Source of the DNA: Candidatus Aegiribacteria sp.
GTDB lineage: Bacteria > Fermentibacterota > Fermentibacteria > Fermentibacterales > JCC-6
Assembly: GCA_030613065.1 (NCBI GenBank)
Contig: JAUWMQ010000002.1
Location: forward strand, 18,007 to 82,006
Direction: 5' to 3'
Length of the DNA stretch: 64,000 bases
Both the position numbers and the translations under genes were made by a program. Position 1 is the stretch's first letter. Each line of letters starts with the position of its first letter. This document shows, piece by piece, positions 1,257 to 64,000 of this stretch. Under the pieces are notes generated by a model, which was not told the DNA's origin, searched no databases, and was given only the letters and a program-made list of their open reading frames with translations.

Positions 1257-2378
1257 ATGATTAAACTTCTTGTTAACCATTCCGACTTACTCAAAGGTCT
1301 TAATTGTGTTGCCACAGCCCTCCCTACAAGAAGCAGTCTTCCTTATCTCACCAATGTTCTTCTTGAAACCGAAGGAGAAACACTTCGATTATCGGCAACT
1401 GATCTCGATACCACGGTTATTACTTCAATACCGGCATCGGTAACAACTAGCGGTTCTATAACACTTCCAGGTAAGAAGTTTCATGAAATAGTGCGTGAAC
1501 TTTCAGAGGAAGAAGTTCGTTTAAGCGGCACTGGTAACAGAATAACAATAAGCTGTGGACTTGGTTCTTTTACATTGAGCGGTAGCTCAAGCGAGCAATT
1601 CCCTTCCCTTCCATCGAAAAGCGGTGTTGATCCATCATGCATTCCTGTTGATGTTCTTTCTGATGCAATTAGAAAAACTTCTTATGCTGTTGCCCATGAT
1701 GATTACAGAGCAACTCTTAACGGAGCACTACTTGATTTCAGCGAAAGCGGATTTGAGATGGTCGCTACCGACGGCCACCGACTTAGTTGTATTACTCTTG
1801 GCAGCCTATCTTCACCCGTAAGTATTCATGCCCTTGTTACGCAGAAAGCCTTGAACCTTTTCGCAAAATTGTCTTCTAATGGAGATGTTCTTATCAGATT
1901 TAAAGGATCGCAGATATCTTTTGAGTTTGGTGATACAATTATTTTCAGCAGAACAATCGATGGAGAATATCCTCCCTACAGGAAAGTTATTCCGCAGGAT
2001 AATGACTGTAGTCTTTCTACAGACAGAGAGGATCTTATATCCGTTCTGCGAAGGGTTAAGACAATGGCGAATCCAACCACCCATCAGATAAAATTCTCAC
2101 TTGAAAAAGACAAAGTTCTTGTTCATTCAGAGAGCGTTGATGCGGGAGATGCACAGGAAGACCTCACTGCTGAATACCAGGGCAGGCCATTCCAGATAGG
2201 GTTCAATGGTAATTTTCTCATGGAAATACTTCGAAATATGAGTTGTGAAAGAATTACAATGAAAATGAAAGACAGTAATACAGCAGTTGTGATTAATGAT
2301 TATGAGGAGACGGATGGTTCCGACTCCTACCTTGCACTGATCATGCCTGTAAAGTTGTCAAAAGCAACAGAAGAGTAG
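1257..2378 (+). CDS. dnaN: DNA polymerase III beta sliding clamp
   Basis: 373 aa immediately downstream of dnaA. The N-terminus MIKLLVNHSDLLKGLNCVATALPTRSSLPYLTNVLLE is typical of the beta clamp, and the three-domain length fits. Confidence 0.92.
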   Translation: MIKLLVNHSDLLKGLNCVATALPTRSSLPYLTNVLLETEGETLRLSATDLDTTVITSIPASVTTSGSITLPGKKFHEIVRELSEEEVRLSGTGNRITISCGLGSFTLSGSSSEQFPSLPSKSGVDPSCIPVDVLSDAIRKTSYAVAHDDYRATLNGALLDFSESGFEMVATDGHRLSCITLGSLSSPVSIHALVTQKALNLFAKLSSNGDVLIRFKGSQISFEFGDTIIFSRTIDGEYPPYRKVIPQDNDCSLSTDREDLISVLRRVKTMANPTTHQIKFSLEKDKVLVHSESVDAGDAQEDLTAEYQGRPFQIGFNGNFLMEILRNMSCERITMKMKDSNTAVVINDYEETDGSDSYLALIMPVKLSKATEE

Positions 2379-7195: not shown

Positions 7196-10100
7196 TTGAA
7201 ACCTCCCGAAATTGGAAAGGGTTTCAGTCTTCCGGAAAAGAATCTTGATATATCAATCGTTTCCCCCGAAACAAGAAGCAGGGTCCTGGCAATATCTCTT
7301 TTTTCATGGGAATGGAAAACCGCCGGAGATGCCCTGGCATTTCTTCTTACCACGATAAAAGACAGCGATGTAGATAAACTTCTTGATAACCTGTCGAATA
7401 TGCAGTCGCCGCCACCGGTCATGGAAGATTCGGCGGTCAAGTGGTTCTCAGCCCTCACCAACCTCCCGTCTGACGCCGTGGTTGTGGCTGTTCAGGAATT
7501 TTTTCATCTCAGCTGGGTATGGAACCAGATAGGTCCACGCACAGGGCTTGTATTTGATGATCTCATCTCATTGTTATACAAGACATTGCGCGTTCTGGCG
7601 GAAACACCTGGAGACCTTTATCTTGCCGAAACACTGATTCAGAAAGGCATCAGATGGCCTGAACGATTCGGTTTCATGCTTGAAAGGACAAGGATAGGCG
7701 GAGGGAATATCGTACGTGCCCTTCAGCGCGCAACAGAGATAATGAAGTATGCCCCCCCTGTAGTTCACGAAACCCTTATTGATTTCGCTGTTGAGACAGG
7801 ATGGTATCTTCTTGCAAAGGAAGACTTGCCGGTATGGAGATCGATAGGAAGGAACGGGGAATCTCTTTTCAGAAAAATGAGGGGATTTTCAATCAAGATA
7901 GAAGCAATCCGTACTCTTTCCGGGTTTCTTGGAAAGCTGGAGGAAACCGAAGAACTGCACCCACTGCTGGAAGACACGATGAAGAGAGTAATCACCGATA
8001 TACTGGGCGAACTTGCCGAACAGGATATGGACGAAATTCTTGAAAATATTTCCGAAAAGGCGAGAGAAGGGCTGAAAAGAAGAGCTGAGAGAAATATAAA
8101 CTTTGATATCATAGACCTGCCTGTCACAGACAGCGGGAACGCACTCGATTATGGAAGAGCTATCGCAGAGATGATCTTGTTCGCCGGGGCAGGAAGAGCC
8201 TTCTATAACTGCTTCCGCGAAACATATTCCATAGCAATAGAGACGGCTGACAATAATCAGGTAATCATGATATCCCGACTCGCTCGTGACAGAAGTGGAA
8301 CCGATTATCTGGAGAGCAGCAAAACTGAATTTTACATTGATTTCATTCCCATTGCTCTGAAGTTCCTTGAAGGGAAGACCAGTAATACAGAGATAAAGCG
8401 GGTCGTTAATTCTGTTGGACGCCTGATGGATGCGATTCTTTGTCAGGACGATCCTGAAGCGGCAATAGTATCCACGAATGCCTACCTGGAGAAGGTTGAG
8501 ATCAGCTATGACAAACTGTTGCCCACGCTTGTACTGCTGTTCCGCTCGACGAAGAGTGCCAGATTTCAGGATCTTGTTTCAAAAAGCGAAGTTTTCGCAG
8601 GCATACTTGACCTGTTGAATGTCAATTACAGAAAAAGACTCCTGGAAGGTGAACAAACAGAATGGTTTACACCACTGGCTGAGGAATCCATCCATTCGGC
8701 AGAGGTTATCATGCGCAAACTGGGAAATATCAATGATGTAGAACTTCGCGGAAGATTCATGGATAAGGTAATAGCTCCTCTGTTGCAGGGAACGGATACA
8801 GAAGACCCCATATTCAACGAACTTATCTCAACCGCTGTCTCCACTTATAACAGAGAGATGAGCATAGACCAGCTGAGGAAAGAGGAAACATCACTTCTTG
8901 GAAAGCTGTTCAGGGCAGAGGACAGGAGCAAGGCTCTCAAGAAATCAATGGAAAACCTTCTAAGAATTCCAGGGATAGAGGAAAAGAAAGCCAACGATCT
9001 CATCTACTCCTCAAGAATGCTCTGCGATATCCTTTCTCAGCAGGCAGTCTGGATAGAGAAGACCGGACATAGAATCTTCAGCAAATTCCTCTCCTACGGA
9101 CTTAACGCATTTGTGAAAACCCTTGTGGAACACCCCGATATAGCCGAAAGAGTGACTGGAAATTTCATGAGGCTTATGATCGATACCATAATTCCTTCAA
9201 AGGAAACTGAGGACAGTGATGTGGCTCTCTGGCAGTTGAAGACGGCGGCGCTGTACTTTGGGAAAACCATACCACTGACGACCGAGCTTATTGCCGATAA
9301 ACCTGATACTCTTATCTCTTACTTCATCGAGATATCAGAGCTCGCAGTGGCTTCCAAGTACGGAGAACCTGCGGGAGCCGCGTTCCTTTCATGGATGTCC
9401 CACAGGCTTGAGTCTGAACTTACCAGTGAATTCGCAAGAAAGGTGAGTGAAGATACTCCATACTCCGAATTCAATGAAAAATTCAATGCTACGTGGCTTA
9501 TGGATAAATGGAGGAGCATAAGGGAAGCGTCCTCCGAAATAATGAAGGAAATGGTGGAATCACTTCAAATACTTACCAGCAACCCTCTCTACCGCCAGAT
9601 ACTTCTCCGGGAGGGACGTAAACTCATTGAGGGTTTCATTGAGAATGGATGCAGCGATATCATTTCCGGTTACACAGGGCAAGACCCCCACGCGGAAATA
9701 GCAAAACTCAGAAAAATCGCTGAGGGCAATGATATCATTGATATATTCAGAATAATGGAAAACGAAAGTAATAGTTCAGCAGGGGAGATTCCGTCAGAAG
9801 TAAGGAGCTTCTTCCAGGAGCAGGCATGCCCTCCGGGCCAGAATATGTGCAGGTGCTGGCGAAAGAAGGTATTCTCGACGCTTGAAAATGTTCTCCTGGA
9901 TATAATACTGCTTTGCGATGATAAAAAGAGCCTTGAAGAAATTGAACAGATGATAGATGATTTTGTAGAGATAATAGGATACTTGGGTACCGATGATGAT
10001 TTTAAACCAAATATAATTCTAACTGCTCTTGAAAAATCACTCTCAAGATCCGAAGGCAGCAGGAAGATGACCATAAGTGTTGCCGTAAGGAACCTTGATA

Positions 10101-28768: not shown

Positions 28769-29503
28769 ATGAAAGAATCACGCGTTGCGTTTTATAAGAG
28801 ATGGGGAACACACTCAAAACCATATTTTGAGTGGCAATCGGAGCAAATATCAAAATATGTTGGTAAAAGAATAGCGGATATAGGTTGCGGATTAGGAAAT
28901 TTTGTAGAAGTATTTAGTGACAAAGAACTCTATTTAGGATTTGATCCAGACGAATCGGTTCGACAGGAAATACAGAGATCGGAGTATCCCGATAATTTCA
29001 GATTATCAAAAAAGGGTGATATCTGTCAGGCGGAAACAGTAGAAGAGATTAATGTAAATGACATAGATACAATTATATGCATAAATACCTTAGAGCATAT
29101 TAAAGATGACAAACAAGCACTGACTAATATGGTCAAGGCAGTTAAAAAGGATGGTCATGTATGCTTAATTGTTCCTGCTTTACATTGCCTTTATGGTTCG
29201 CTGGACGAATTTGATGGTCACTATAGAAGATATTCAAAAAAGGACTTATTAGTACTCACAGATAATTTGGAAGTGGAAATAGTTCTATTACGTTATATGA
29301 ACATGATTGGAAGCGTAGGATGGTTTATCAAGAGCAGAATTGTAAAAGAAAAAACATATAAGAACACGAATTTCAATATTATAGTAAGTCTTCTCCCGAT
29401 AATATCTTTTTTAGAAAAATATATAAAACCTATATTTGGTCTTTCACTTGTTCTGGTGCTGCGAAAGCGTAATAGTTTACGTCCCTTTACATCAGTGAAA
29501 TAA
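28769..29503 (+). CDS. Class I SAM-dependent methyltransferase
   Basis: Motif I IADIGCGLGNF and the acidic motif II region LGFDPDE. The 244-aa length fits the family. Confidence 0.7.
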   Translation: MKESRVAFYKRWGTHSKPYFEWQSEQISKYVGKRIADIGCGLGNFVEVFSDKELYLGFDPDESVRQEIQRSEYPDNFRLSKKGDICQAETVEEINVNDIDTIICINTLEHIKDDKQALTNMVKAVKKDGHVCLIVPALHCLYGSLDEFDGHYRRYSKKDLLVLTDNLEVEIVLLRYMNMIGSVGWFIKSRIVKEKTYKNTNFNIIVSLLPIISFLEKYIKPIFGLSLVLVLRKRNSLRPFTSVK

Positions 29504-29513: not shown

Positions 29514-29539
29514 ATTATTAGGCGGTAGAGCACCGCTAA

Positions 29540-29620
29540 GCAAACCGGAGGAAACTCCGGGACGCAAAGCCACGGATCCCAGCCGCTTCAGGGGAAAGCG
29601 GAAGGATAGCCGGGTTACCG
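29540..29620 (+). ncRNA. c-di-GMP-I (GEMM) riboswitch aptamer, copy 1 of a tandem pair
   Basis: GCAAACC-GGAGGAAACUCC-GGGACGCAAAGCCACGG...GGAUAGCCGGGUUACCG matches the GEMM-I hallmarks. These are the 5' CAAAC, a P1 hairpin with a GAAA tetraloop, GACGCAAAGCC, and the 3' AGCCGGGUUACCG. Compare V. cholerae Vc2 GGGCAAACC...GGGACGCAAAGCCUCCGG...GGUAGCGGGGUUACCG. Confidence 0.8.
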
Positions 29621-29631
29621 TTTGACTCAAT

Positions 29632-29708
29632 GCAAACCGGAGGAGACTCCGGGACGCAAAGCCACGGATCCCAGCCCGGGAAACCGGGAAGGACAGCCGG
29701 GTTACCAG
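29632..29708 (+). ncRNA. c-di-GMP-I (GEMM) riboswitch aptamer, copy 2 of the tandem pair
   Basis: GCAAACCGGAGGAGACUCCGGGACGCAAAGCCACGGAUCCCAGCCCGGGAAACCGGGAAGGACAGCCGGGUUACCA. It shares conserved cores with copy 1 but has a different P2 hairpin (CCCGGGAAACCGGG), so it is a diverged duplicate rather than a recent repeat. Confidence 0.8.
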
Positions 29709-29756
29709 ACGTCTGCCCGAGGGGGAACTCCCGAGCAGGTTGAGGAGGTGCTCAGG

Positions 29757-30029
29757 ATGAGGTTGATACCAATAATACTGGTAGCGCTTCTGCCGTCGGT
29801 AATGCTAGCCGGCGTAACCGTATCCTCCTGCACTGCTGATGTTGACAGTTTTATCAGCATCGCCAGAGAGGCAATGGAGGATGGTAACTACGTTACCGCG
29901 TTTGCTCTGTATGAATGCGCTCTCCGAAGAGAACCCCACTCTTCAGAAGCTCTCGCAGGCTGTCTTATGGCCAGGGCTTTTATGGTGGAGTGTTGTTCTG
30001 CAACGCAGATTCAGGTTACTTTACGCTGA
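29757..30029 (+). CDS. Small secreted/lipo-protein (90 aa) downstream of the tandem c-di-GMP riboswitches; helical TPR-like mature region
   Basis: Strong SD GAGGAGG at 29741..29747, then an ATG at 29757. Signal peptide MRLIPIILVALLPSVMLAGVTVSSC. The ORF-track N-terminal extension from 29622 is the riboswitch itself. Confidence 0.5.
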   Translation: MRLIPIILVALLPSVMLAGVTVSSCTADVDSFISIAREAMEDGNYVTAFALYECALRREPHSSEALAGCLMARAFMVECCSATQIQVTLR

Positions 30030-61286: not shown

Positions 61287-61368
61287 CCACCCATTAGTTG
61301 AAGAAGTGTGCTACGTCCCCGGTAGCACCACCCATAAGTTGAAGAAGTGTGCTACGTCCCCGGTAGCA
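61287..61368. repeat. Tandem 41-bp direct repeat (2 copies, 1 mismatch), each containing a short hairpin; overlaps the last codons of thi4
   Basis: CCACCCATTAGTTGAAGAAGTGTGCTACGTCCCCGGTAGCA occurs twice in a row. The internal palindrome GTGCTAC-GTCCCC-GGTAGCAC forms a stem-loop, and the thi4 stop codon lies inside copy 2. Confidence 0.6.
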
Positions 61369-62149
61369 GAGTATGGATTTTCACTGCTGCAATTCTCCCC
61401 GAGAGAAGCATCCCTCCAAATATTGGTCCCATTCGATGGGCTCCCATGGCTGCATTTGCAGCCATACCGGTAACAAAGAGACCGGGCACGATTTCAACGG
61501 TGTTTTCCGCCAGAGCTCTCTCTCCCATGTCAGCATTCATTGACCTTTCTCCCTCGATGCCGCCGGAAGGAGTTCTCAGCCTCAAACCGGTCTTTTTAAC
61601 AACAGTGCGCAGAACCTCTAGCGGATGACCTGTGGCTTCGATCACATATTTTGCAGAGATACACACGGGATCCACATGAAGACCGGCAATTTCAATCGGG
61701 CTGGATGTAACCACCACTCCGGTAATCCTGTCATGATCGATCATTACGTCTTCAACTGAAAAAAGATTGTAAATGGTCACTCCTGCCCTGCACGCCTCCG
61801 CTATGAGAGTTGCGATGGATTCAACTGAATTCGCAGTGAAGTAACCGGGGGAATAAAGCGACGTTCTAACTCCAAGTTCCTCGAGTATTTTCTTTCCTTC
61901 TTCCTGGACTACAATTACGTTGAAACCCATTCCTCCCCCCCACATGCCACCCCCGGTGGAGAGCTTTCTGTCGAAAAGAGCAACTTTATGACCCTTGAGA
62001 GCCAAATCCCTTGCGGCAGTCAATCCCGCGGGACCGCCTCCGCATACTGCCACATCCAGCTCAAGATTATCGAGCAGAGTGCTCATATAGGTGTCTACAA
62101 TAGCCCTGGTTATCTCAACTTCACTTAACTTGCTCAAGGAAAACTCCAT
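61352..62149 (-). CDS. thi4: Thiazole synthase of the Thi4 family (sulfide-dependent His-type variant)
   Basis: FAD-binding VAVCGGGPAGLTAARDLALKGHKVALFDRK. GAHRMGPIFGGMLLSG carries His at the position where yeast THI4 has the sacrificial Cys. Confidence 0.85.
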   Translation of the reverse strand: MEFSLSKLSEVEITRAIVDTYMSTLLDNLELDVAVCGGGPAGLTAARDLALKGHKVALFDRKLSTGGGMWGGGMGFNVIVVQEEGKKILEELGVRTSLYSPGYFTANSVESIATLIAEACRAGVTIYNLFSVEDVMIDHDRITGVVVTSSPIEIAGLHVDPVCISAKYVIEATGHPLEVLRTVVKKTGLRLRTPSGGIEGERSMNADMGERALAENTVEIVPGLFVTGMAANAAMGAHRMGPIFGGMLLSGRIAAVKIHTLLPGT

Positions 62150-62165
62150 TCTGTATGATTATGTC

Positions 62166-62804
62166 TCAGGTTCGACAAGGTTTGCCCGGCCCTTTGAGAA
62201 GAGCCCTGACCACCTCCGCCACATCCTCTGCCGCCATAATTGCCGACACAACGGCAATACCGTCGGCACCCGCTTTCCGTACAATATCCGCATTGGATGG
62301 ATTTATCCCTCCAATGGCAACAAGTGGCAGAGGAGAAGCCTTTTTCAAATCCGTTATAGCCCCTATTCCAAGGGGTTCTCCCAGATCGGTCTTAGTGTCC
62401 GTTGGAAAGATAAGGTTCGCCGCGATGTAATCGGCCCCCTCCTTATATGCGAGTATAGCTTCCTGCGGAGATCTAGCCGATGCTCCTATTACCGCGTCAG
62501 CTCCAAGGAATTTTCTGGCAAGGGAAACAGGCATGTCGTCCTGCCCCAGGTGAACCCCGTCAGCCCCTGCTGCCATGGCAACATCCACTCTGTCATTCAC
62601 GATAAACAGCGCTCCATGCATTCTGCAGAGATTCTGCAGAATAACCGCCATGTGAATCAGCTCCCTGGTGGAAGCATTCTTGTCCCGAAGCTGCAGCGCA
62701 CCGACCCCTGCCTTAAGGGCCAGCAGGCAGGTTTCCTCTACCCCCCTGCTGCCGCAGAGGACCGGGTCGGTTACAAGGTACAGAGAGAGCTGTTCGGAAT
62801 TCAC
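62166..62804 (-). CDS. thiE: Thiamine-phosphate synthase
   Basis: Begins LYLVTDPVLCGSRGVEETCLLALKAGVGALQLRDK and carries the C-terminal GGIN motif VAIGGINPSN. Confidence 0.85.
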   Translation of the reverse strand: MNSEQLSLYLVTDPVLCGSRGVEETCLLALKAGVGALQLRDKNASTRELIHMAVILQNLCRMHGALFIVNDRVDVAMAAGADGVHLGQDDMPVSLARKFLGADAVIGASARSPQEAILAYKEGADYIAANLIFPTDTKTDLGEPLGIGAITDLKKASPLPLVAIGGINPSNADIVRKAGADGIAVVSAIMAAEDVAEVVRALLKGPGKPCRT

Positions 62805-63607
62805 TGGAGAAGTTCCGCCCTGATGCGGCTTTCGATAATTTCGCAGTCCAGAGCTGAAAGAGCGTCAAGAAAACAGGGGACAAAAGTTCCCGGGCCGGCA
62901 CATGCGTCAGCCGCATTCTCTCCCGCAATGCCCGCTGCAACAAGCCCGCCCAGCGCCGCATGGAATGGATCATCCATCGCTGCTGCGAAACAGGCAACGG
63001 AAGTCGTGGCAGCACAGCCCGTTCCGGTAACCCTTCCCATTAAGGAATGACCGTTTTCAATCCTTGCAGTCCGATTTCCATCGGTAACAATATCTGAAAC
63101 TCCCGTAACGGCGATCACACTGCCCGATTTCGAGGCAAACGAAGAAATAAACTCAATACGGCCCTCAACGGAATCCCTGGAATCTACTCCGCGTACTTTT
63201 CCCTCCGCGCCTGAAAGAGCGAGAACCTCACCTGCATTTCCCCGGATGATGGCTATCTCAAGTTCGTTGGCGATCATTCTTGCGGAATTCGTTCTGAGCC
63301 GGGTAGCACCCGTTCCAACGGGATCGAAAATTATGGGTATCCCGAGGTCATTTGCCACCCTCCCTGCAGAGAGCATACTCTTTACAAGGCCGGGATCCAG
63401 AGTACCTATATTCAGAAGAAGAGCCCCGGCGAACCGAACCATTTCGGGGGATTCTTCGATACAGGGCGCCATTACGGGAGCCGCTCCAAGACAAAGCGTT
63501 ACATTTGCGGTGAAATTCATCACCACGGTATTAGTTATATGATGGATCATAGGACTGCTGCTTCTTATGGCAGTAAGGCCACGGCAGGTTATCTCTGCGG
63601 GTTTCAT
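62801..63607 (-). CDS. thiM: Hydroxyethylthiazole kinase
   Basis: PMIHHITNTVVMNFTANVTLCLGAAPVMA is the ThiM N-terminal signature. 268 aa, coupled to thiE. Confidence 0.85.
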   Translation of the reverse strand: MKPAEITCRGLTAIRSSSPMIHHITNTVVMNFTANVTLCLGAAPVMAPCIEESPEMVRFAGALLLNIGTLDPGLVKSMLSAGRVANDLGIPIIFDPVGTGATRLRTNSARMIANELEIAIIRGNAGEVLALSGAEGKVRGVDSRDSVEGRIEFISSFASKSGSVIAVTGVSDIVTDGNRTARIENGHSLMGRVTGTGCAATTSVACFAAAMDDPFHAALGGLVAAGIAGENAADACAGPGTFVPCFLDALSALDCEIIESRIRAELLQ

Positions 63608-63617
63608 GAAAGCCTCC

Positions 63618-63881
63618 GGATTTTCTTACGCCGGTATTATCCGGATCAAGTATAAGCCTGCATCTTTCACCAGCGTTCTACTACAGCGGCGTATACAGCA
63701 GTGTCTACTTCGTTCTGCTCATCCATCCGTCCTCGACGTACTGTTCAAGTACGCCTGCGGAGTCTGTACTCGCAAGCCTAGTATCCACAACTGTCTACGA
63801 CGCTTCGAAACGAACGCTGGTGAAAGATGCAGGCTAGGGGTTCTATTCTCAGGCCCGGACTCTCCGGGCCACCCCCAATCC
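63618..63881 (-). ncRNA. TPP (THI-box) riboswitch controlling thiM-thiE-thi4, with a large insertion at the J2/4 junction
   Basis: On the minus strand the sequence reads GGAUU-GGGGGUGG-CCCGGAGAGUCCGGGC-CUGAGA-AUAGAACCCC ... [insertion] ... CUUGAUCCGGAUAAUACCGGCGUAAGAAAAUCC. This aligns element by element with E. coli thiM (P1, P2, P3, CUGAGA, ACCC, P4/P5 CCUGAUCUGGAUAAUGCCAGCGUAGGGAA). The 3' strand of P1 abuts the SD GGAGG and the ATG. Confidence 0.75.
63655..63835. repeat. 181-bp element flanked by 24-bp perfect inverted repeats (AGCCTGCATCTTTCACCAGCGTTC) inserted inside the TPP aptamer; MITE-like or an extra structured arm
   Basis: Arm A at 63655..63678 is the exact reverse complement of arm B at 63812..63835. 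The 133-bp interior is itself an imperfect palindrome (for example GTACTGTTCAAGTAC). Confidence 0.5.
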
Positions 63882-64000
63882 AACTCCAAAGCTAGCAATG
63901 ATAAATTTCAGCGTCAAACAGGGTGACTTGCGGAACCCTCCATATATATTATTTCTATCCTTCAGAGAGCATTCGAAAAGCAGATGAAAGGCAGCCCTAA

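Follow-up and report, generated by a model that had tools for sequence, protein, structure and literature searches.

The mobile elements closest in kind to the sequence described here are the Correia or NEMIS elements of Neisseria, prokaryotic MITEs of 100-200 nt, which are non-coding and TA-flanked, with terminal inverted repeats some 25 bp long. They lie frequently in 5' leaders, are co-transcribed and form long hairpins, and their inverted-repeat stems, as parts of mRNAs, are substrates of RNase III and are cleaved by it (PMC10969869). A further described group, the ERIC/Chunjie-type MITEs, consists of imperfect palindromes. These are transcribed together with host genes, and they can spare operon structure or alter mRNA stability (PMC10969869). 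The latter cases are intercistronic or situated in 3' UTRs, and none was found in literature searches to be described within a ligand-binding aptamer. More generally, the searchable literature yielded no description of a riboswitch aptamer that contains a MITE.

The regulatory system concerned is the translational TPP riboswitch of the E. coli thiM type (RF00059), the Rfam consensus of which includes an optional stem, P3a. Known length variation of TPP riboswitches is located in P3 and in this optional P3a, not in J2/4. In E. coli thiM, A53-A84 and A56-G83 are stacked as tetrads on P2, A53 is sandwiched by U52 and G83, and the formation of the junction together with the closure of P1 is the slow, function-critical last step (PMC2018614, PMC3764141). 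At J2/4 positions 54-55 E. coli thiM carries U-C as against the consensus G-A, in a numbering consistent with PMC2018614.

In the present study a stretch of 64,000 nt of Candidatus Aegiribacteria sp. (GCA_030613065.1, contig JAUWMQ010000002.1), hereafter the window, was analysed, in which 181 nt divide the aptamer of a thiM leader. Like the Correia elements, this insert is non-coding, of 100-200 nt and bounded by terminal inverted repeats of similar length, lies in a 5' leader, where it would be co-transcribed as a long hairpin with a comparable 24-bp stem, and has two relatives that are TA-flanked. It differs from them in showing no sequence similarity and no promoter-like site, in its host, a Fermentibacteria MAG, in its target, the core of a riboswitch aptamer, and in its single documented copy, where Correia elements exceed 100 copies per genome. 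With the ERIC/Chunjie-type elements it shares the imperfect palindrome and the transcription with host genes. The leader in turn shares with RF00059 all helices and motifs, the thiM-thiE-thi4 context and the Shine-Dalgarno sequence abutting P1, and differs from it in 181 extra nt in J2/4. The locus is thus a new instance of two known kinds, MITEs and RF00059, and a single-lineage event without sign of selection. Taken as a whole, it is quite probably an ordinary thiM TPP riboswitch that was recently struck by a MITE-type foldback, with TPP control likelier weakened or lost.

Anatomy of the thiM leader

The flanks of the insert hold every element of a TPP aptamer on the minus strand and in the correct order, as the original prediction had maintained: the helices P1 through P5, CUGAGA, ACCCC and the Shine-Dalgarno sequence could all be read, and the conserved motifs CUGAGA, ACCC and CUUGAUCC...CCGGCGUAAG follow each other as they should.

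Elements of the leader, as read from the sequence (all minus strand):
63836..63881, 5' part of the aptamer, comprising the P1 5' strand, P2, P3, CUGAGA, J3/2, ACCCC and C, U of J2/4; collinear with the orthologues
63881-63877, P1 5' strand GGAUU
63876-63847, P2 and P3 with CUGAGA
63841-63837, P2 3' strand ACCCC
63618..63654, 3' part of the aptamer, comprising the J2/4 remainder UAUA, P4, P5 with its loop and the P1 3' strand; 32.0 bits against RF00059 on its own
63650-63625, P4 and P5
63622-63618, P1 3' strand AAUCC
63617-63613, Shine-Dalgarno sequence GGAGG, abutting P1; invariant in orthologues
63607-63605, thiM start codon AUG; invariant in orthologues

Genes downstream of the leader (all minus strand):
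62801..63607, thiM, hydroxyethylthiazole kinase, 268 aa (PF02110, E = 3.2e-80)
62166..62804, thiE, thiamine-phosphate synthase, 212 aa (PF02581, E = 6.7e-62)
61352..62149, thi4-type thiazole synthase, 265 aa (PF01946, E = 6e-71)

The aptamer therefore lies upstream of the thiamine genes thiM, thiE and thi4, as expected for RF00059. All three genes are full length in their Pfam matches and the operon displays no decay, so that its predicted intactness was borne out. The homologues of ThiM were labelled by their sources as Candidatus Fermentibacteria or Aegiribacteria.

Since AAUCC, the 3' strand of P1, passes without a gap into the Shine-Dalgarno sequence GGAGG, 5 nt before the AUG, an arrangement invariant in the orthologues, the ancestral device can be read from its anatomy as an ordinary translational TPP OFF switch, in which a ligand-stabilised P1 would occlude ribosome binding at GGAGG.

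What sets the window apart is the contiguous short J2/4 linker of the three-way junction, which is broken by 181 nt between its positions 2 and 3. The linker runs C-U-(181 nt)-U-A-U-A in the window as against C-U-U-G-A-A in the orthologues, and hence the earlier description of a linker "replaced" by the insert needs correction: in the alignments to orthologues it is split into C-U and U-A-U-A. Beside the insert (63651-63654, minus strand), positions 4-5 of J2/4 read A-U, where all nine orthologues (9/9) possess G-A. Because two adjacent changes at the boundary stand against a background divergence of about 5%, the exchange of GA for AU was probably tied to the insertion event, or else represents a later adjustment.

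Rfam scores of the window, its halves and the orthologues

With a gathering score of 54.3 bits for RF00059, no TPP riboswitch reaches the Rfam threshold anywhere in the window. A relaxed scan returned RF00059 at 32 bits, in an alignment in which the 3' half alone was truly aligned and the 5' half was forced into the insert; the score is this low because J2/4 carries 181 extra nt. In the orthologous leaders scanned, RF00059 was detected in seven of seven, uninterrupted and directly upstream of thiM, with 62.9-73.8 bits.

Scored by itself, the 3' half of the window aptamer reached 32.0 bits (RF00059 model positions 56-105, E = 5.4e-05), and that of the closest relative (GCA_030668585.1, L002) 35.5 bits. 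The 5' half by itself gave no Rfam match for the window, nor for the L002 control, a limit of the method that renders this comparison uninformative; the two 5' halves differ in one base. Based on these half-aptamer controls and on the single difference in the 5' half, the flanks of the window aptamer, joined without the insert, would be expected to score about 70 bits. Covariance-model annotation silently misses riboswitches with mobile-element insertions, and the window, without a match at the gathering score, is an example.

Empty sites in related genomes

A comparison of orthologous thiM leaders, which the original prediction had proposed, comprised nine leaders, seven of them scanned with Rfam (from relatives with ThiM 84-97% identical) and two further ones compared by alignment. 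The insert was absent from 9/9, and the window was otherwise collinear with all nine. The closest relative, L002, with a DNA identity of 94.1% across 1962 nt, has an empty site, and the BLAST alignment between both breaks exactly at 63651 and 63836. The site is accordingly polymorphic for presence and absence, as it would be for a mobile element. Since the 181 nt are missing at every orthologous site, comparison of the leaders identifies them as an insertion and not as a conserved structured expansion, and the insertion appears to postdate the split from the relative that is 94% identical in DNA.

These empty sites also refute the alternative which had been offered alongside the insertion, namely that the long arm is a lineage-specific structured expansion of the riboswitch held by selection. 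The strong predicted structure of the insert would fit such an expansion, but nine of nine orthologous leaders, including that of the 94%-identical genome, do without it, and part of its sequence recurs at an unrelated locus of another genome (L036, see below); we regard this origin as very improbable. To speak of an unusual riboswitch architecture was an overstatement, as the leader has the marks of an ordinary riboswitch with a recent mutation and not of an evolved design.

The insert was recovered 100% identical over its full length in a second assembly, a Logan contig (L001, run SRR12623517). An assembly or library artefact, i.e., a chimeric foldback, would be compatible with the fact that this sole other assembly with the insert is a 2.4-kb contig that starts inside the aptamer and may share the sample of the window. 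Such an artefact is scarcely credible, however, as the two assemblies are 100% identical over both insert junctions, the interior of the insert is only imperfectly palindromic and an independent genome (L036) contains a half copy homologous to it. Logan contigs of related thiM loci were seen to end within the riboswitch, L052 in the P5 loop (its stretch 1-31 begins 31 nt before thiM) and L001 in P2 (relevant stretch 1-40). Such ends may have arisen by chance or may point to additional variation in these leaders.

Inverted repeats and folding of the insert

The insert and its arms were found exactly where they had been placed before, with perfect inverted repeats of 24 nt enclosing the 181 nt.

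Features of the insert (all minus strand):
63655..63835, foldback insert of 181 nt, MITE-like, between the J2/4 equivalents of E. coli thiM U52 and A53
63812..63835, terminal inverted repeat, 5' arm in the RNA (AGCCTGCATCTTTCACCAGCGTTC), from the inverted-repeat search; the terminal ~20 nt also in L036, L040 and L022
63655..63678, terminal inverted repeat, 3' arm in the RNA (GAACGCTGGTGAAAGATGCAGGCT), 24/24 complementary to the 5' arm

According to the inverted-repeat search, the arms of 24 nt each are 100% complementary and lie 133 nt apart, where 0.00 such matches are expected from dinucleotide shuffles of the window. Aligned with its own reverse complement, the insert is about 70% identical over its whole length and perfect in the terminal 24 nt only. 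In agreement with the self-complementary core noted earlier, it is predicted to fold as one single long imperfect hairpin, with -98.7 kcal/mol (z = -10.5) in the sense strand of thiM and -83.7 kcal/mol in the antisense strand. As RNA the hairpin is thus 15 kcal/mol more stable in the sense of thiM than in antisense. Presumably, this gap arises from many interior mismatches that become G-U in the transcribed strand only; with one copy at hand, the preference is indistinguishable from chance.

No terminator or promoter was flagged by a scan within the insert, and the tail following its stem, UAUACUUG, is a weak U-tract at best. An ORF of 119 aa (window 63567-63926, plus strand) runs antisense across the whole insert and both halves of the aptamer. 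A search of the protein collection returned no homologue of this ORF, which is almost certainly spurious, although a gene caller could annotate it.

Relatives and origin of the insert

With 181 nt, the insert stays well under the size of about 600 bp that is allowed for a MITE, and its six-frame peptides found no homologue in a collection of 5.8 billion proteins. These peptides had been concatenated, so that spurious ORFs annotated across other copies would be detected as well. Further copies were sought by the exact 18-mer of the terminus in one genome per GTDB species, which yielded 41 loci, mostly chance matches or positions in conserved genes, and only three of them (L036, L040 and L022) are relevant. 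In the remaining 38 the inverted partner was never better than 6 mismatches in 20.

Relatives of the insert:
2189-2345, minus strand, L036 (Candidatus Aegiribacteria MAG, DAOWFD010000017.1), half copy with insert nt 1-112 and an extra block of 45 nt
7464-7593, L040 (Pseudomonadales MAG), element of 126-130 nt with 22-nt inverted repeats
264-443, L022 (Planctomycetota MAG), element of ~180 nt, predicted to fold at -97 kcal/mol

The half copy in L036 matches insert nt 1-112 at 89-95% identity and occupies an unrelated intergenic region with a different gene context. It possesses only one terminus, forms no hairpin (z = -1.5) and is accompanied by no second terminus within 8 kb. An Rfam scan of this region returned nothing relevant. 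The half copy lies upstream of an ORF of 631 aa, which we take to resemble a glycosyltransferase, and small ORFs adjoining it (1879-2333, plus strand) received no family assignment. An apparent IS256-type transposase N-terminus among the ORFs of L036 was rejected, as neither Pfam nor NCBIfam nor tblastn against plasmids supported it.

The elements in L040 and L022 are both intergenic and start with the same ~20 nt as the insert, (CT)AGCCTGCATCTTTCACCA, while their interiors are unrelated to it; the likeness is confined to these ~20 terminal nt, for 18 of which the search itself had selected. With GCCTGC...GCAGGC as the limits of the element, each of the two has a TA flank at either end. For the window copy the flanks are TA and T-TA, for the half copy in L036 CA, and the empty site of the orthologues, CCCCTTGAACTTG, contains no TA. 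Target-site duplications of 2 bp (TA or CT), 3 bp (YTA) and 4 bp (CTAG or YTAR) were modelled, none of which yields both window flanks from the empty site.

Other searches were negative or close to it. The original prediction had proposed a search of the rest of the genome for additional copies of the 24-bp repeat; the 64-kb window contains none, nor does it contain a second copy of the insert as a whole. The exact 18-mer terminus revealed no full copy in the GTDB species genomes, and the exact 20-mer gave two chance matches in JGI metagenomes. Patterns of paired termini at three spacings were absent from IMG/VR, blastn of the insert against plasmids and phages produced no match, and the terminus as a string occurred in no paper of the searched literature. 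Except for the two small elements, no second terminus lay within 8 kb at any of the 41 genome and two metagenome loci, and no parent IS or transposase with the termini of the insert was found in these loci.

A shared terminus joined to different interiors, in small hairpins at unrelated sites, is what non-autonomous elements mobilised by related transposases would look like, and judged by its sequence the insert is therefore MITE-like. Membership among MITEs in the strict sense is incomplete, since a single copy is documented, the parent IS was not found and the target-site duplication is ambiguous. Of the notion of a MITE within a riboswitch, the foldback insertion and the related sequence at unrelated loci thus held good, whereas the strict MITE status is incompletely supported, with one copy in 64 kb and no parent IS found. 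Fermentibacterota, Pseudomonadota and Planctomycetota have the 20-nt terminus in common, which may be the mark of a very widespread, undescribed family of non-autonomous elements that target TA.

A foldback could also have originated without transposition, by template switching during repair or replication and inverted duplication of a sequence like that in L036. The insert is single-copy within the scope searched, a clean target-site duplication is lacking, two bases at the junction are altered, and the only close relative is the half copy in L036, which has neither a second arm nor a hairpin, all of which would suit such an origin. Yet a fresh snap-back should be a perfect palindrome, and here perfection is limited to the terminal 24 nt, with an interior complementary at about 70%; moreover, two hairpins in other phyla bear the same terminal 20 nt between TA flanks, the signature of an end recognised by a transposase. 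Template switching is for these reasons improbable. On the MITE-type reading, a transposase able to recognise the terminus GCCTGCATCTTTCACCA would have moved the element in trans, with TA as the probable target, as in transposition of the IS630/Tc1-mariner type. The landing place of the non-coding foldback of 181 nt, within the J2/4 linker of 6 nt at the three-way junction, is shown by the alignments to the orthologues.

Predicted structure and consequence for TPP sensing

In the predicted fold of the whole leader, P1, P2/P3, the insert hairpin and P4/P5 are arranged round one junction (z = -9.25). The ensemble prediction assigned pair probabilities of 0.76-1.0 to the aptamer helices with the insert and of 0.69-1.0 without it, and pairing between insert and flanks sums to 0.125. 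The suggestion that the insert would extrude as an extra helix agrees with these values: at the level of modelled secondary structure it is a self-contained, extruded fourth helix, and the aptamer helices are kept, a fold that would fully permit the aptamer to assemble. In the mRNA it would zip into its own imperfect hairpin of about 90 bp, by which the three-way junction would become a four-way junction with P1-P5 still pairable, and it would ride along as a passenger and not as an evolved part of the sensor.

Two arguments render a weakening or loss of TPP control the rather more probable consequence, with retention the somewhat doubtful one. Firstly, the insert breaks the continuity of junction stacking that couples ligand binding to the closure of P1; secondly, it places a perfect RNA duplex of 24 bp, of the type attacked by RNase III, between the two ligand-binding domains. 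Cleavage of this duplex would separate the two domains. With TPP control weakened or lost, expression of the operon would be largely independent of TPP.

It is possible, if on balance doubtful, that the insertion of the mobile foldback was tolerated and that the riboswitch still senses TPP and represses thiM as a natural four-way junction. Minimum-free-energy and ensemble structures alike keep P1-P5 and let the insert pair with itself alone; the ligand-contacting regions CUGAGA, J3/2 and P4/P5 and the equivalent of A56, which is retained in the window aptamer, are the same as in the orthologues, and the 3' half still reaches 32.0 bits, against 35.5 bits for that of L002. Because E. coli thiM carries U-C at positions 54-55 of J2/4, G-A is not required there, and the exchange for AU may be harmless. 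The hairpin being stabler by 15 kcal/mol in the transcribed orientation and the thiM-thiE-thi4 operon without decay point the same way. Against this, the insertion point falls within the very junction in which stacked tetrads link ligand binding to the closure of P1, the perfect 24-bp duplex is a likely target of RNase III, and the insertion is restricted to one lineage and hence bears no evolutionary sign of maintenance. Literature searches, too, gave no natural TPP aptamer bearing a helix in J2/4, and to our knowledge none is known.

The interrupted leader, a mutation and not a system, is a neat curiosity and a convenient natural insertion mutant and not a new architecture, and it is not conceptually surprising; it was struck at the most delicate point of a well-understood riboswitch. 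As the thiM leader exists both in an interrupted form (window) and, in L002 (94% identical), in an uninterrupted one, the pair is a natural experiment on whether J2/4 tolerates an extra helix. That the interrupted aptamer still binds TPP and controls thiM, so that a four-way-junction riboswitch was made in one step, seems unlikely; if true, it would mean that an entire helix can be accommodated in J2/4 and that riboswitches may acquire new stems by way of MITE insertion. As a variant of this reading, cleavage of the 24-bp stem by RNase III may lead to a two-piece aptamer or to control based on processing.

Further observations in the window

Upstream of the aptamer a block (63889-63917, minus strand) is conserved in all orthologues, consisting of GTTTGACG, 17 nt and TAGCTT(T). 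By its letters this block looks like a -35 element with a weak -10 element; the promoter scan passed over it. Its segment AGCUUU pairs with the Shine-Dalgarno region GAGGCU in some predicted folds, and if the block is read as a promoter, this segment would not be transcribed.

At a distance from the thiamine operon, two aptamers of the c-di-GMP-I riboswitch were detected.

Additional riboswitch aptamers (both plus strand):
29529-29622, c-di-GMP-I riboswitch aptamer (RF01051), 68.1 bits
29623-29709, c-di-GMP-I riboswitch aptamer (RF01051), 64.4 bits

They follow each other directly head to tail between an ORF ending at 29503 and small ORFs starting at ~29622-29839, a tandem arrangement which, from the sequence, suggests cooperative or two-input control.
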